Below, one piece after another: positions 9,784 through 17,009 of a stretch of 64,000 bases of DNA. The stretch's first letter is position 1, and each line of letters begins with the position of its first letter. This stretch comes from an uncultured Desulfosoma sp. (GTDB lineage Bacteria; Desulfobacterota; Syntrophobacteria; Syntrophobacterales; DSM-9756): contig CALGPN010000003.1 of NCBI GenBank assembly GCA_937960435.1, forward strand, positions 128,117 through 192,116. The letters run 5' to 3'. Position numbers and translations under genes: made by a program. The notes below the pieces were generated by a model that had not been told where the DNA came from, ran no database searches, and saw only the letters and a list, made by a program, of their open reading frames with translations.

Positions 9784-11106
9784 ATGCGAAAAGGGAGCCG
9801 AAAGACTCGTTTGGTGATCATGACCGCGTGTGTGGCCCTTGCCGGATGGATGGCACTGCGGGCCATGGCGACGGGGGCCGAGAAGGGTGTTTACGAGCAG
9901 CTCAGGCTGTTCAGTGATGTGATGAACTTGGTCCAAGAGCATTACGTGGAGCAAGTGGATTCCCAGAAGCTCATCTACGGAGCGATCAGCGGGATGCTCC
10001 GCGAACTGGATCCCCACTCTTCTTTTCTTCGCCCTGAGGATTACAAGGAACTGGAAATCGAGACCAAGGGCAAGTTCGGCGGCATTGGGATCGAAATCAC
10101 GATCCGAAACGGGGTGCTGACGGTGGTGGCCCCGCTGGAGGGGACGCCCGCGGACAAGGCGGGCATCCAGGCCAACGACCAGATCATCAAGATCGATGGG
10201 GCACCGACCCAGGAAATGAGCCTCACGGAAGCCGTGCAGAAGATGCGCGGTCCCAGAGGTACCAAGGTCAAACTGACCATCATGCGGGAAGGGCAGCGCA
10301 AGCCTCTGGAATTTGAACTGACCCGGGACATCATCACCATCCAGAGTGTTCGGACCCGTCCTTTGGAAAAAGGTTACGGCTATGTGCGCATCTCCAGCTT
10401 CCAAAGCGGCACGGGACGAGATTTGCGCAAGGTGCTGGAAAAACTGGAAGCGGAAGACAAGCCCCTGCAGGGCTTGATTTTGGATCTCCGGAACAATCCA
10501 GGCGGGCTCTTGGATCAGGCGGTGGCCGTCGCCGACGAATTTTTGGACTCGGGACTCATCGTGTATACCGGCGGGCGGCGCGAAAACCAGCAAATGCGCT
10601 TTGAAGCGACCAAGAACGCTTCGCCCCACCCCTATCCCATCATCGTTTTGGTTAACGGCGGCAGTGCCAGCGCGTCGGAAATCGTCGCCGGGGCGCTCCA
10701 AGACCATCGAAGGGCGGTGGTGGTGGGGGAACCGACCTTCGGGAAGGGCTCGGTCCAGACCGTCATCCCGCTCAATGACGGCTCGGCGGTGCGCCTCACC
10801 ACATCCTTATATTACACGCCAAGCGGCCGATCCATTCAGGCCAAGGGAATCGTCCCGGACATTGTGGTGAAACGTGTCGTGCCGAACCCTGAAAACGGCG
10901 GCGAAGAAGCCTTGCGCCGTCTGAGGGAAAAGGATCTACCCCGTCACATGGAAGTCCCTCAGAATAAACCCGAGGAAGAGGAAAAGACCGCGCCGCAACC
11001 GGAACAATCGGATACCGAAAAATGGCTTGAAGCGGACAATCAATTGCGCCACGCTCTGGAATTGCTTAAGAGCTATCGCATCATGGCGGAGACGCGTTAC
11101 AAATAG
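9784..11106 (+). CDS. ctpA: Carboxy-terminal processing protease, S41 family with PDZ domain
   Basis: LDPHS, GIGIEI (PDZ), LDLRNNPGGLL, SASASEIVAGALQD (catalytic Ser), TFGKGSVQ (catalytic Lys); N-terminal signal anchor. Confidence 0.95.
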   Translation: MRKGSRKTRLVIMTACVALAGWMALRAMATGAEKGVYEQLRLFSDVMNLVQEHYVEQVDSQKLIYGAISGMLRELDPHSSFLRPEDYKELEIETKGKFGGIGIEITIRNGVLTVVAPLEGTPADKAGIQANDQIIKIDGAPTQEMSLTEAVQKMRGPRGTKVKLTIMREGQRKPLEFELTRDIITIQSVRTRPLEKGYGYVRISSFQSGTGRDLRKVLEKLEAEDKPLQGLILDLRNNPGGLLDQAVAVADEFLDSGLIVYTGGRRENQQMRFEATKNASPHPYPIIVLVNGGSASASEIVAGALQDHRRAVVVGEPTFGKGSVQTVIPLNDGSAVRLTTSLYYTPSGRSIQAKGIVPDIVVKRVVPNPENGGEEALRRLREKDLPRHMEVPQNKPEEEEKTAPQPEQSDTEKWLEADNQLRHALELLKSYRIMAETRYK

Positions 11107-11129: not shown

Positions 11130-12290
11130 ATGGCTTCAACACAGGGGAAAAAGCGTCCGGGATCGGGAACGGCCGTGCGGCACGCGGCGGGGCGCAGACC
11201 TCGGCCCAACGCCTCCGGGTCGGGTGGGGGTCGGAAAACGGGGCCCAGAGACTCCGTATTCCTTCCTCTGCTTACCGTGTGGATCGTGGTCCTCTTGCTT
11301 CTCGTCATCGTTCTCTACTGGACGAGAGGAAGCCTGTTCCGGACGGCCGTGCCCGGAGCCAAAGGAAGGGAAACCGCCGCGGCGGTCCCGGCTCCTGAAC
11401 GCCAAGCCTCACCGCCAAAAACGTCATCAAAGGACTCGCCCCCCCCTTCTTCCCCGGAGGGCTCGGCCTTCGAAACAGGGGACAAAAAGGGCCGCGAAGG
11501 GGAGACACCGAAAGGGAGCGCCGTGGTGGCTTCGGTGCCTAAAGTCGCCCCGGAACCCCCGGTGGCGCCGCTGCCTCCGGCCAAACCCCCCGCCGGTCGA
11601 GCGGCCCTCGTGATCGACGACTTCGGCTACGACATCAAAATCGCACGAAAATTCATCAACCTTCCCGTAGCGATGACCTTTTCCGTGCTTCCACATCTGC
11701 CGCACACGGAAGAAGTCGCGGCTCTTGCTTCACGTCACGGCCATGAAGTGTTGCTCCACATGCCCATGGAACCTCATGGATACCCGAAGAGCGATCCGGG
11801 GCGAGGAGCCCTGCTTGTGGCCATGACGCCCCAAGAGATGGTCGCCGAGATCGACAAGGCCTTGAAGGAAAATCCATACGCCCGCGGGATCAATAACCAC
11901 ATGGGCTCCAAGTTTACCGAAGACGCTGACGCCATGAGGGTCGTTTTACGGCATCTGAAAGAGCGGGGCTTTTATTACTTGGACAGCTACACCAGCCCCC
12001 AGAGTGTCGGCATGGCGGTGGCTCGGGATCTCGGTATGCCGTGTTTGAAAAGAGATATTTTTTTGGACCATGAACCGACGGAAGACTTCGTGCGGCGCCA
12101 AGTCGCGGAGCTCATCCGCCGGGCTAAGATCGAAGGCCGGGCCGTAGGGATCGGTCACCCCTATCCGGTTACTCTAAAGGTTCTGGAGCAAGAGGCCGAG
12201 ACTTTCGAAAAGGAAGGGATCGAAATCGTCCCGCTTAAAAAACTTTTGGACGGGCCCGCGGCAGCAAACGGCGGCAAGGCAGGGGCGTAA
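11130..12290 (+). CDS. Divergent polysaccharide deacetylase family protein (YibQ-like) with TM anchor and Pro-rich linker
   Basis: LVIDDFG, LLHMPMEP, GINNHMGS, RDIFLD, GIGHP motifs; usual position downstream of ctpA. Confidence 0.9.
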   Translation: MASTQGKKRPGSGTAVRHAAGRRPRPNASGSGGGRKTGPRDSVFLPLLTVWIVVLLLLVIVLYWTRGSLFRTAVPGAKGRETAAAVPAPERQASPPKTSSKDSPPPSSPEGSAFETGDKKGREGETPKGSAVVASVPKVAPEPPVAPLPPAKPPAGRAALVIDDFGYDIKIARKFINLPVAMTFSVLPHLPHTEEVAALASRHGHEVLLHMPMEPHGYPKSDPGRGALLVAMTPQEMVAEIDKALKENPYARGINNHMGSKFTEDADAMRVVLRHLKERGFYYLDSYTSPQSVGMAVARDLGMPCLKRDIFLDHEPTEDFVRRQVAELIRRAKIEGRAVGIGHPYPVTLKVLEQEAETFEKEGIEIVPLKKLLDGPAAANGGKAGA

Positions 12291-12530
12291 GACTCCTCAT
12301 AGGCTGGGGCTTTTCGGTTCTTTCACGGAAGACGCCGAGCGCGGCTCTGCCGCTGGCTGAATGTATGGAAAGGCGGGTGCCGAGAAGGTCTTTCCCCAGG
12401 CGAGTGTGGTGCTTTTAATGGAGGATACGGGTGGAGACACGGGGGCTGTGCTTAAGTCGGTTTCCCCCGTCCGAGAGGCTAAGAAATGAAGACTGTGGGA
12501 AAAAGAAGACCGGTGTCTCAAGGAAATGGA

Positions 12531-13571
12531 GTGAAATTAAAGCTTCGGTACTGGGGAGGGCTGATCGTTGCGGTTTTCGGCCTCCTGTGCCTTCCATGTG
12601 CTGCGGTCGCCTCTCAGCCTACGCCGGATCTGGGCTCACAAGCCTCTCAGACCGCTCCCTTACCCAAGATCGTCGTTGAAAACCCGCAGGCGGATCTGGG
12701 AGAAGTGATGGAAGATGGAACCGTTTCCCACGACTTTGTCGTTCGCAATGCGGGCACCGCCCCATTGATCATTGAACAGGTACGCCCCGGCTGAGGCTGC
12801 AGCGTGGCCCGGTTCGACCGGGAGATCCCTCCGGGTCGAGAGGGAAAAGTGACGTTGACGGTCCATCTTGCGGGGTATCGGGGTAAAGTGAACAAAAGCG
12901 CCATAGTTTACTGCAACGATCCTCAAACCCCGAGAGTGCCCCTGTCCGTCAGTGCCAAGGTCGTTCCCTTTGTGGACATCCGCCCGAGCGACGCGGTGGT
13001 GTTCCGCGGTGCCGCGGCGACGCTGAAGCCCCAGGAATTGGAAGTCGAAAGCGCCAAGACTCCGATGCGCATCCTTCGAGTGGAAAGCGATCTGGAAAAG
13101 GAAGTTTCGGTCAAAATCGAACCGCTCGCAGAGGGAAGCCGTTACCGTGTGGTCATCGCGAACCAAGCTGAGCAGGGAAGTTATTCGGGCCGTGTTCGGT
13201 TGATCACGGATCATCCGCAAAAACCCGACGTGACGATTTCTGTTCGAGGGATGGTGGAAGGCCCCATCGGCATTCGCCCGACCCATCTTCTTGTGGGCAA
13301 GACCAAGGGGGATGTCGCCAACCGAGTGGGCAGAGTCCTTGTGGTCAGCCACAGCGGGGCGGCGTTCCGCATCACCGAGATGGACTACGATCGCGAGCTG
13401 TTGGATGTCGCCGTGAGACCTCAGAAGGATCCACCGGGTTATGTGTTGGATGTTTCGGCCAAGCTGGAAGACGTCCCTCCCGGGACGCAGAAACGGACGA
13501 CATTAAAAGTCCAAACCGATGCACGACCGCAGGAGTGGCTGAGCGTCGAGGTTTTTGTGGTGAATCTCTAA
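12531..13571 (+). CDS. Secreted DUF1573-type (Ig-like repeat) protein, probable selenoprotein with in-frame UGA at 12792-12794
   Basis: ORFs 12486-12794 and 12804-13571 are in the same frame, joined by TGA GGC TGC AGC: HDFVVRNAGTAPLIIEQVRPG-U-GCSVARFDREIPPGREGKV, matching the DUF1573 CGC pattern; signal peptide from GTG 12531 (ATG 12486 is the alternative start). Confidence 0.75.
12795..12839 (+). promoter_or_regulatory. Candidate bacterial SECIS element
   Basis: Hairpin CCCGGT-TCG-ACCGGG (12808-12822), G-containing loop beginning 20 nt after the UGA; alternative hairpin TCGACC-G-GGAG-ATCC-CTCC-G-GGTCGA (12814-12839). Confidence 0.5.
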
Positions 13572-13669: not shown

Positions 13670-14797
13670 TCACATGCCGGCGGAAAAGGTTCCCGGTTCG
13701 TAGAGACACAAGGGCTCTTCCGCCATATAATTTCCGGTGGCCTCGTAAGCCCGCGCGCGACATCCTCCGCAGACTCTGACAAATTCACATCGGCCGCACT
13801 TGCCTTCCAGGGCCTTGAAATTCCGCAGACGTTGAAACACGTCCGAGTTTTTCCAGATATCTTGAAAGGGTTCTCGGCGCACATTGCCGCAGTCCACTTC
13901 CAAATAGCCGCAGGGCTGGACCGTACCCACATGGGAAATAAAGCAAAAGCCGGTCCCTCCCAAGCAGCCTCGGGTCATGGCGTCCAACCCGAAGCTATGC
14001 TGATCCACGGGGCGGCCTTCCGCCCGGGCCCGTTGCCGCAGGATTCGGTAATAATGAGGGGCGCATGTGGCTTTGAGCTGCAAAGGGACCTTGTCTCGCT
14101 GGTCATAAAACCAGTGGAGGGTCTTTTCGTATTGCTCGGCGTTGATCGTCTGTTCTTCCAAGTTCTTGCCGCGTCCTACCGGGACCAAAAGGAAAATATG
14201 ATGGGCCACGGCCCCGAGGGCCACGGCAACTTCCTGGATTTTCGGCAGTTCTCGAAGATTGGCCCCTGTGATGGTCGTGTTGATTTGAAAAGGCAGAGCG
14301 GCCGCTTTGGCGTTTCGGATGCCCCGCAGCGCTCCTTCAAAGGCGCCGGGGACCCCGCGAAAAGCATCGTGGCTTGCGGCGTCCGCTCCGTCCAGACTGA
14401 TGCTGATGCGCTGGATGCCCGCTTCTTTCATCCGTCGTGCCGCCTCCGGAGTGACCAAGGTGCCGTTGGGGGCCATGGTCATCCGAAGACCCTTCGCGTG
14501 GCCGTATGCGGCCAATTGGAAAATGTCGGGGCGCAAGAGGGGTTCTCCACCGGTAAGAATCACGATGGGGGAGCCGACCCGTGCGATGTCGTCCAAAAGG
14601 CGGAGACACTCTTCGGTGCTCAATTCGTCGGCGTAGGGTTTGTCCACAGCGGCGGCCCGGCAATGCACGCAGGAGAGATTGCACGTGCGGGTGACCTCCC
14701 ACGCGACCAGGCGCAACGTCCACGAGTGCCGGTGAGAGGTTGAGGCGCTCGTCGGGTGCTCGGCGCCGCTGGCTTTTGCGCATTTATTGGCAGGCAT
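13670..14797 (-). CDS. ahbD: Heme b synthase (Fe-coproporphyrin III decarboxylase), radical SAM/SPASM
   Basis: LRLVAWEVTRTCNLSCVHC (CX3CX2C), LTGGEPLLRPD, SPASM Cys cluster; ahbC-hemB-ahbD order. Confidence 0.85.
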   Translation of the reverse strand: MPANKCAKASGAEHPTSASTSHRHSWTLRLVAWEVTRTCNLSCVHCRAAAVDKPYADELSTEECLRLLDDIARVGSPIVILTGGEPLLRPDIFQLAAYGHAKGLRMTMAPNGTLVTPEAARRMKEAGIQRISISLDGADAASHDAFRGVPGAFEGALRGIRNAKAAALPFQINTTITGANLRELPKIQEVAVALGAVAHHIFLLVPVGRGKNLEEQTINAEQYEKTLHWFYDQRDKVPLQLKATCAPHYYRILRQRARAEGRPVDQHSFGLDAMTRGCLGGTGFCFISHVGTVQPCGYLEVDCGNVRREPFQDIWKNSDVFQRLRNFKALEGKCGRCEFVRVCGGCRARAYEATGNYMAEEPLCLYEPGTFSAGM

Positions 14798-14823: not shown

Positions 14824-15801
14824 TCATGACGACGAAAGAAGGCGGGCGGCGTCCTTGGCAAAGTACGTGATGATGAGATCCGCTCCGGCTCGGTGAATGG
14901 CGGTGAGCACTTCCATCATCACGCGTTGTTCGTCGAGCCAGCCGTTGGCGGCGGCAGCCTTGATCATGGCGTACTCACCGCTCACGTTGTAAGCAGCCAC
15001 CGGCCAGTCGAATTCATCGCGCACGCGCCGAATGATGTCCAGGTAGGCCAGAGCGGGTTTGACCATAATGATGTCGGCCCCCTCGTGCAGATCCAGCTGG
15101 ATTTCTCGTAAGGCCTCCCGAGCGTTGGGCGGGTCCATCTGGTATGAGCGCCGATCCCCGAATTGGGGTGCCGACTCCGCTGCTTCTCGAAAGGGACCGT
15201 AAAAAGCCGAACAGTACTTGGCCGAATAGGCCATGATGGCCGTATGCGTGAATCCTCCTTCGTCGAGTTTTTGGCGAATGGCGCCGATGCGCCCATCCAT
15301 CATGTCCGAAGGAGCCACCATATCGGCGCCTGCCTGAGCGTGGGAAACCGCGATTCGGGCCAGGATCTCGAGCGTGGCATCGTTGTCCACCTCACGGCCT
15401 CGAAGCACGCCGCAATGGCCGTGGCTCGTGTATTCACACAGGCAGACGTCGGTGATGACCACGAGATCCGGGCAGCGGTCCTTGATGGCGCGCACGGCCT
15501 CTTGGACCACGCCGTGGGAGGCGTAGGCTTCGGAGCCCCTTTCGTCCTTGCGCTGGGGAAGACCGAAGAGAATGACGGCGGGAATGCCCAGATCCCCGGC
15601 TTCCCGGGCCTCGTCGGCCACGGTGTCCGGCGAAAACTGGAAGACTCCGGGCATAGACGGCACGGCCTGCCGAATTCCGCGCCCGGCTCGGACGAAAAGG
15701 GGGTAAATGAACATGTCCGGGCTCAGCCGAGTTTCCCGAATCATGCGTCGCAGATTTTCACTCTGTCGCAAGCGCCTCGGGCGGTACTGTGGAAACCACA
15801 T
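14824..15801 (-). CDS. hemB: Porphobilinogen synthase (ALA dehydratase)
   Basis: [20 protein letters not shown] (Zn site), [29 protein letters not shown] motifs. Confidence 0.97.
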
Positions 15802-15818
15802 GCGGGAACCTCCTTCGC

Positions 15819-17009
15819 TCACTTCGATTCGAGGCCGATTTCTTCATCGGTAAGGTAGCAGGCCGGATCGGGGGCCCATAGATCGCCCGTAGCCGCTTCC
15901 GCACGCACGCGAAAGTTGCCGCCGCAGATGGCGAGCCATCGGCATCGGGCGCAGCGACCTGTGACGTAACGTTTTTTGTCTTTGAGGCGGGCCATCAGAG
16001 GGTTGGACAAGTCGGACCAAATGGCACTGAACGGGCGCTGCCGGACGTTTCCGAAGGCGTAGTGACGCCAGAACTGATCGGCGTGGACTTGGCCGTCCCA
16101 GCTCACGCAGCCGATTCCCCTTCCGGAATTGTTGCCTTCGTTCATTTCCAGCAATTTGAGCACGTCCGGGGCCCGGGGAGAACCTTCCCGAACCATCCGC
16201 AGGTACACATAGGGCCCGTCGGCGTGATTGTCCACGGTGAGCACTTCCTTCGGCTTGCCGCGACGGTGTAGATCGGCGGTGCGGTCAATGATGAGGTCGA
16301 CGGCGCGCCGGGTCTCTTGGTGGGTGAGATCGTCTTCCATGAGCCTGGAGCCACGGCCCGCATAGACAAGGTGGTAGAAGCAGACCCTTGGGATGTCGCG
16401 GGATTCCAAAAGATCGAAGATCGCGGGAATTTCGGAGGCGTTTCTTCGGTTCATGGTAAACCGAAGCCCCACCTTGATGCCGGCTTCCTGGCAGGCCGCA
16501 ATGCCTTCCAAAGCCCTTTGAAACGCTCCCTTGACGCCCCGAAACCGATCGTTGACCTCTTCCATGCCGTCCAAACTGATGCCCACGTAGGAAAGGCCGA
16601 GGTCTCTCAGTTCGCGAGCGACGTGCGGGGTGATGAGGGTCCCGTTGGTGGAAATGACGGCGCGCATCCCTTTGTCCACGGCGTAGGCCGCCAGTTCCAC
16701 CAAATCCGGCCTCATCAGAGGCTCCCCGCCGGAAAAGAGCACCACGGGGCATCCGAAGGCGGCCAAGTCATCCAGGAGCGCCTTGCCTTCCGCCGTGGTC
16801 AATTCGTCGGGAAAATCGCGGTCCAGGGCATGCGCGTAACAATGAACGCATTTCAGGTTGCATCGGCGGGTCATGTTCCAGACCACAACGGGTTTCTTAT
16901 CCTGAGAAAACTGCAGGAGATGGGACGGCAGTCGGCCGCTGTGCCGTCCGTAGCGCAGCGCGTCGGACGGTTCCACAGTGCCGCAATACAATTTGGAGAT
17001 GCCGATCAT
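15819..17009 (-). CDS. ahbC: 12,18-didecarboxysiroheme deacetylase, radical SAM/SPASM
   Basis: [10 protein letters not shown] start, [32 protein letters not shown] CxxC-x5-CGGNFR; upstream of hemB. Confidence 0.85.

Follow-up and report, generated by a model that had tools for sequence, protein, structure and literature searches.

An in-frame UGA in a DUF1573 gene of a Desulfosoma-type sulfate reducer very probably encodes the selenocysteine of a known selenoprotein family, OS_HP2

We analyzed a stretch of 64,000 nucleotides from a contig of an uncultured Desulfosoma sp. (CALGPN010000003.1; this whole stretch is called the window, and positions refer to it unless a contig is named). With high confidence, the gene under study is intact and belongs to a known selenoprotein family, the OS_HP2 / DUF1573 "U-G-C" family; its carrier is a Desulfosoma-type sulfate reducer. 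A preliminary description of the same DNA had proposed a 346-aa exported selenoprotein with a Sec-Gly-Cys site. Evidence from the codon, the homologues, the decoding machinery of the genome, and the RNA downstream of the UGA supports this proposal, with export predicted from the N-terminal sequence.

The two open reading frames from which that proposal started, one running from an ATG at 12486 to 12794 and the other from 12804 to 13571, do lie in the same frame, and only TGA GGC TGC AGC stands between them. The TGA at the head of this short stretch, directly followed by GGC TGC, is the sole interruption of the frame up to 13571, irrespective of whether it is read from 12531 or from 12486 (table 1). 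An alternative start codon, a GTG at 12531, has AAGGAA just upstream, and it is the more likely start compared with the ATG at 12486. The read-through product has 346 aa from the GTG and 361 aa from the ATG, and around the stop it reads ...IIEQVRPG-U-GCSVARFDREIPPG...

Table 1. Features of the selenoprotein gene, its product, and its neighbours (positions in the window)
Feature	Position	Strand	Basis and remarks
C-terminal processing protease (S41 peptidase, PDZ domain)	9784..11106	+	PF03572, 205.5 bits; first gene of envelope cluster
Divergent polysaccharide deacetylase (YibQ-like), upstream neighbour	11130..12290	+	PF04748, 274.8 bits
Selenoprotein gene, OS_HP2 / DUF1573 family (very probable)	12531..13571	+	Frame, PF07610, NF041425, full-length alignment with 19 homologues
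Predicted Sec-type signal peptide, M1-A27	12531..12611	+	Read by eye from the sequence; cleavage after A-V-A
DUF1573 / OS_HP2 domain, first predicted beta-sandwich, bears U-G-C	12672..12956	+	PF07610, NF041425
UGA codon, very probably selenocysteine, then GGC TGC	12792..12794	+	U88 from GTG 12531; U103 from ATG 12486
Hairpin A, candidate SECIS	12804..12826	+	Pairs 12808-12812 with 12818-12822, loop UUCGA; alignment columns 13-35
Hairpin B, candidate (UCCCUCC-GGGUC-GA-GAGGGA)	12826..12845	+	Directly after hairpin A; invariant GG in apical loop
Second predicted beta-sandwich domain	12972..13259	+	Strands in residues 148-243, pLDDT about 90-97; no Pfam match
Third predicted beta-sandwich domain	13266..13568	+	Strands from residue 246 to 345; no Pfam match
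Radical-SAM/SPASM gene	13670-14797	-	Convergent with the selenoprotein gene
hemB (porphobilinogen synthase), adjoining	14824-15822	-	Convergent with the selenoprotein gene

The domain evidence joins the two halves of the frame. A single match to PF07610 (DUF1573) reaches 78.1 bits against a cut-off of 26.1 and covers residues 63-157 of the 361-aa reading, so that it spans the stop at residue 103; the DUF1573 domain is thus unbroken across the UGA, as had been claimed at the outset. Against the NCBIfam model NF041425, "OS_HP2 family (seleno)protein," the read-through protein, its Sec entered as Cys, reaches 110.3 bits and so lies above the curated whole-protein cut-off of 100; when the stop is kept, a six-frame match gives 92.9 bits. 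OS_HP2, "Olavius symbiont's hypothetical protein 2," is listed among six new selenoprotein families of deltaproteobacterial symbionts in Table 2 of a 2007 paper (Zhang and Gladyshev; PMC1976440). The 2008 Global Ocean Sampling paper by the same authors, in the passage on this family, equates it with pfam07610 and gives a UxC motif and 354 Cys homologues (PMC2398784), and a "DUF1573 domain-containing protein, UGC" appears in the selenoprotein lists of two reviews from 2022 and 2026 (PMC9312934, PMC13188914). Since the gene passes the NF041425 threshold and OS_HP2 was published in 2007 and 2008, its family is already catalogued, and the central idea has been in print for almost twenty years.

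To follow the codon beyond this genome, we compared homologues, which were found in 34 of the 41 genomes searched (40 related genomes and the window's own). Most of the full-length matches in the related genomes, down to 32% identity, carry exactly one TGA. Among homologues from other genomes, 28 have this TGA in one and the same alignment column, in the context G/S-U-G-C, which excludes a chance stop or a sequencing error. At the codon level, TGA-GGN-TGY occurs in 28 sequences and TGY-GGN-TGY in nine stop-free homologues, with one Thr variant. The U-x-C motif (here UGC) is therefore aligned with the CGC of Cys homologues, giving a Sec/Cys pair, and the Cys-Gly-Cys of the stop-free forms agrees with the CGC motif that the preliminary description had ascribed to DUF1573 domains. 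These nine full-length, stop-free homologues, all from the same order as the window genome, form the Cys set used below.

Past the stop, the protein is conserved along its whole length, down to 38% identity and with a mean column identity of 55% among 19 homologues; His67, Glu61, and Asp96 are invariant near the U-G-C motif in the same alignment. Because the whole length after the stop is conserved, a decaying pseudogene is ruled out. As judged by comparison across these homologues, the TGA codon is shown to be under purifying selection. Comparison of this codon among homologues had been named as a check on the selenoprotein reading; close and distant homologues alike have either TGA or Cys at this position, and no accumulating lesions are seen.

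The family is not confined to the close relatives. In an even sample of the phylum it was found in 58 of 151 genomes, with many of the matches carrying one TGA, so the OS_HP2 / DUF1573 family is fairly common in the Desulfobacterota, as is its Sec form, to which many of the copies belong. Genomes of a neighbouring family in the same order (G012, G016, G018, G022, G027, and G031-G035) encode up to eight DUF1573 paralogues each, both long ones of ~350 aa and short single-domain ones of ~150-200 aa, most of them with one TGA, a pattern that looks like expansion of the Sec form within this lineage. The Thr variant is an orthologue (L024, G030:C93:134-1096, minus strand) with Thr-Gly-Cys in place of Sec-Gly-Cys or Cys-Gly-Cys, and it may represent a variant after loss of the first chalcogen. 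At another locus (L025, 2459-2485, minus strand), a TGY-GGN-TGY...TWY-GAY pattern of the Cys type (CGC) lies ~200 nt upstream of the Sec-form gene, which suggests an adjacent Cys-type DUF1573 paralogue.

The genome of the window (3.0 Mb in 61 contigs, 95% complete) encodes the complete Sec-decoding trait. A genome search for the sel genes, again a check named beforehand, recovered selA (623 bits), selB (408 bits), and selD (375 bits), and Aragorn, with its output filtered to Sec or tca-anticodon tRNAs, returned one tRNA-Sec (selC) with the anticodon tca. Outside the window, selD itself is a selenoprotein gene (C12:12892-13815); its in-frame TGA, at C12:12922, belongs to a GAG-U-ASK motif. There is also a second full-length SelB paralogue (263 bits). 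The two SelB paralogues, likewise outside the window at C23:21227-23125 (408 bits) and C34:5214-7100 (263 bits), each contain an EF-Tu GTPase domain along with the beta-barrel and winged-helix domains of SelB. All three congeners have a second SelB copy above the cut-off, and so do several genomes of the same family; some of these matches cover just the N-terminal part.

Two other readings of the stop have to be weighed against selenocysteine. The TGA might have inactivated a former Cys-type DUF1573 gene, or the true product might be the 255-aa downstream ORF, which opens with a GTG (12804) only 9 nt past the stop and which gene callers do yield for the orthologues. We regard this as very improbable, given that a single TGA is kept in 28 homologues diverged to 38% identity with both halves conserved. 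Moreover, the stop would cut the DUF1573 domain in the middle of its beta-sandwich, the 255-aa product would have no signal peptide, unlike full-length Cys homologues such as P0014 (which is called full length, signal peptide included), and the genome holds the full Sec machinery. If the UGA is read through, it might instead be decoded as Cys or Trp by near-cognate or suppressor decoding, and Cys would be chemically acceptable at this site, as the paralogues use it. That such decoding operates here is hardly credible, however: the tRNA-Sec is the only tRNA that Aragorn returned among Sec or tca-anticodon tRNAs, UGA stands for Sec elsewhere in the genome, for example in selD, and the conserved RNA structure described below is specific to the TGA-bearing forms, which implies recoding of the SelB type. 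Selenocysteine thus remains our preferred reading of the codon.

Two adjacent hairpins follow the UGA (table 1). The onset of hairpin A lies 9-13 nt past the UGA, close to the spacing of the E. coli fdhF element. Changes on both sides were found in four of its seven pairs; for columns 15 and 33, both of them third codon positions, the pair is CG in seven sequences, GC in six, and UA in six, and the observed covariation score was reached by none of 500 shuffles. Its mean folding energy is -8.6 kcal/mol in the Sec forms versus -2.6 kcal/mol in the Cys forms (p = 3e-4; nine Cys sequences, kinship ignored), and -9.9 kcal/mol in the window copy. The stem of hairpin B is almost invariant in the Sec forms, and the window copy folds with -10.3 kcal/mol. 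Two of its synonymous columns differ between the forms: column 36 is C in 28/28 Sec forms versus 5/9 Cys forms, and column 39 is U in 25/28 versus 3/9 (Fisher p about 0.002 for each, kinship ignored). It should be noted that all these comparisons of Sec with Cys forms are Fisher and Mann-Whitney tests without phylogenetic correction on a small Cys set of nine. Folded as a single sequence, the 91-nt region that includes the UGA is only slightly more stable than shuffled sequences (z = -1.39, nonsignificant), so the evidence for RNA structure comes from the comparative data.

The minimum-energy fold of the window copy is a longer hairpin at 12813-12840 (UCGACCG..CGGGUCGA). This fold was rejected as a candidate for the conserved element: it requires GGT CGA (Gly-Arg) codons that are specific to the lineage, the closest relatives are unable to form it, and G is absent from its loop, AUCC.

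According to the legend of Fig. 2 in the 2026 review, the bacterial SECIS model comprises an apical loop of 3-9 nt, an upper stem of 4-16 bp, a UGA-to-loop spacing of 16-37 nt, and an energy of <= -7.5 kcal/mol, and it wants a G in the first two loop positions; the same source speaks of a subset of bacterial SECIS elements outside this consensus (PMC13188914). Both hairpins are within the model in size, hairpin A with a stem of 5-6 bp and a loop of 3-5 nt in the window copy (in most relatives, 7 bp and 9 nt) and hairpin B with a stem of 7 bp with one bulge and a loop of 3 nt, and both lie below the energy limit. The loop of hairpin A, UUCGA here and AUUUCGAUC in many relatives, has no G in its first two positions in the tightest fold, and gains one only when G20-C28 and G21-C27, the pairs at the top, stay open; its spacing of 16-18 nt is inside the range. 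Hairpin B does present a G there (the invariant G43 and G44), at a spacing of 38-39 nt, which is 1-2 nt beyond the range. Neither hairpin consequently fits all four published constraints. A scan of the whole window with Rfam at gathering thresholds gave no matches, which has no bearing on a SECIS either way. The search for a SECIS that had been suggested for this gene has thus led to conserved stem-loops with compensatory changes after the UGA, neither of which fully fits the standard model. We conclude from the comparative data that a SECIS is present after the UGA, with hairpins A and B both being candidates for SelB binding.

One could go further and propose that the Syntrophobacterales OS_HP2 genes use a bipartite, nonstandard SECIS composed of two adjacent hairpins that are constrained only in the Sec forms, perhaps read, within the family to which the window's genome belongs, by the second full-length SelB (C34:5214-7100), which is kept in that family. 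We consider such an arrangement improbable, and the assignment of the second SelB to the hairpins of this gene is pure speculation; a literature search on the duplication of bacterial SelB turned up nothing relevant. If true, it would mean two SelB/SECIS classes within one bacterium.

The product would be exported by a Sec-type signal peptide. The preliminary description had placed a signal peptide in the N-terminal part, and the layout of the N-terminus, MKLKLRYWGGLIVAVFGLLCLPCAAVA|SQ, agrees with this when read by eye: a K/K/R n-region, a hydrophobic core of 13 residues, and an AVA|SQ site. These residues have a pLDDT below 50 in the AlphaFold2 model, and the N-termini of the homologues are variable and hydrophobic. 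The model, which was calculated from a 20-sequence alignment, has a mean pLDDT of 87, and values above 90 outside the signal peptide. It predicts three tandem beta-sandwich domains at residues ~45-146, 148-243, and 246-346 of the 346-aa numbering, in which U88-G89-C90 sits at a turn that links strand 79-86 to strand 90-95. The best PDB fold matches are tandem Ig-like arrays, namely HYDIN/ASH-type ciliary proteins, RTX adhesin repeats, and cadherins, with no enzyme-like structure among them, and the fold search also matched an uncharacterised Porphyromonas gingivalis protein (2qsv). The Ig-like scaffold suggested earlier is in accordance with this model and its fold matches. A PDB sequence search with the read-through protein gave no match at E <= 1.

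We propose that SelB and Sec-tRNA(Sec) insert selenocysteine at the UGA at 12792, guided by the stem-loops within 55 nt downstream, and that the exported product consists of three tandem Ig-like beta-sandwich domains with Sec88-Gly-Cys90 in a turn of the first. The selenol/thiol pair would then form a reversible selenenylsulfide and serve as a periplasmic thiol-redox site, which is the weakest step of this proposal; by analogy with known motifs, we give the redox couple about an even chance. The cell envelope would be the place of action of the protein, and the conserved position of its gene behind the gene pair for the CtpA protease and the YibQ-like deacetylase agrees with this.

The same U-G-C site might alternatively be a ligand for soft metals or metalloids (Cu(I), Hg, Cd, As), and the protein would then bind or detoxify metals in the periplasm. 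The invariant His67, Glu61, and Asp96 near the motif would suit such a role, and several other catalogued bacterial selenoproteins handle metals, with MerP/MerT-like proteins, P-type ATPases, and YHS proteins named in the family lists of two of the papers cited above (PMC2398784, PMC9312934). A distant homologue, P0024, is named "cupredoxin-like copper-binding protein" in its source, but this database name is an automatic label. Metal-resistance genes are not found adjacent to the gene, whose neighbours are envelope-maturation and haem-synthesis genes, and we consider metal binding unlikely, if a serious possibility. The redox and the metal readings both draw on the general chemistry of CXC/UXC motifs and on the gene neighbourhood.

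Regarding this neighbourhood, the arrangement with a YibQ-like deacetylase gene immediately ahead of the selenoprotein gene and in the same orientation recurs in a congener (L010), in Desulfacinum (L013), and in a member of another family of the order (L017, 42% identity). A weak terminator-like site separates the deacetylase gene from the selenoprotein gene. On the other side, the radical-SAM/SPASM gene adjoins hemB, and it may encode a haem synthase of the AhbD type, an enzyme of the sirohaem-dependent pathway in sulfate reducers. The same radical-SAM gene is convergent on the selenoprotein gene at a further locus (L015).

The preliminary description had expected annotation pipelines to split the gene, and this has indeed happened to its orthologues. 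The deposited records for Desulfosoma caldarium and Desulfacinum hydrothermale are 255-aa fragments with the name "hypothetical protein," and in the protein collection the orthologues occur only as 255-aa (or 240-aa) fragments from the GTG past the stop (MARFDR...). Correctly annotated, the gene would encode a single selenoprotein of 346 aa, with a translation exception marked at 12792-12794, in place of a 255-aa hypothetical protein, and the same correction is due for the deposited Desulfosoma and Desulfacinum orthologues. Beyond correct annotation the significance is small. Since the family is fairly common in the Desulfobacterota, the well-conserved three-domain orthologue, with its fixed neighbours, would lend itself to a first biochemical study of an exported selenoprotein without a thioredoxin fold.

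Compared with OS_HP2 as defined by NF041425, the gene described here differs in nothing essential: it shares the PF07610 domain, its U-G-C is aligned with the C-G-C of Cys homologues, it scores above the curated cut-off, and it comes from the phylum of the deltaproteobacterial symbionts in which the founding members were found. What sets the orthologue group of the window apart is the presence of two extra C-terminal beta-sandwich domains and the fixed place behind the YibQ-like gene, neither of which is mentioned in the passages of the OS_HP2 literature cited here. What is modestly new amounts to three minor points: the predicted architecture of three domains, the conservation of the gene's surroundings, and the arrangement of two hairpins behind the UGA. 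With the Cys proteins of the DUF1573 family (PF07610), whose representative structure is 2qsv from P. gingivalis, the putative selenoprotein shares the Ig-like beta-sandwich fold, the position of the CGC motif, and export, whereas these proteins have Cys for Sec, and in the nine Cys forms the RNA past the codon varies more at its synonymous sites and forms less stable folds. The candidate SECIS resembles bacterial elements of the E. coli fdhF type and the bSECISearch consensus as an in-coding stem-loop near the UGA with stem, loop size, and energy in range, and departs from them in the missing loop G of hairpin A in its tightest fold and in the GG loop of hairpin B, which is ~2 nt too far. Redox motifs of the CXC and CGC type are known from small-molecule and protein mimics of protein disulfide isomerase. 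The U-G-C site shares with them two chalcogen residues with one Gly between them in a turn, within an oxidising extracytoplasmic compartment, but it would be presented on an Ig-like sandwich in place of a thioredoxin fold.
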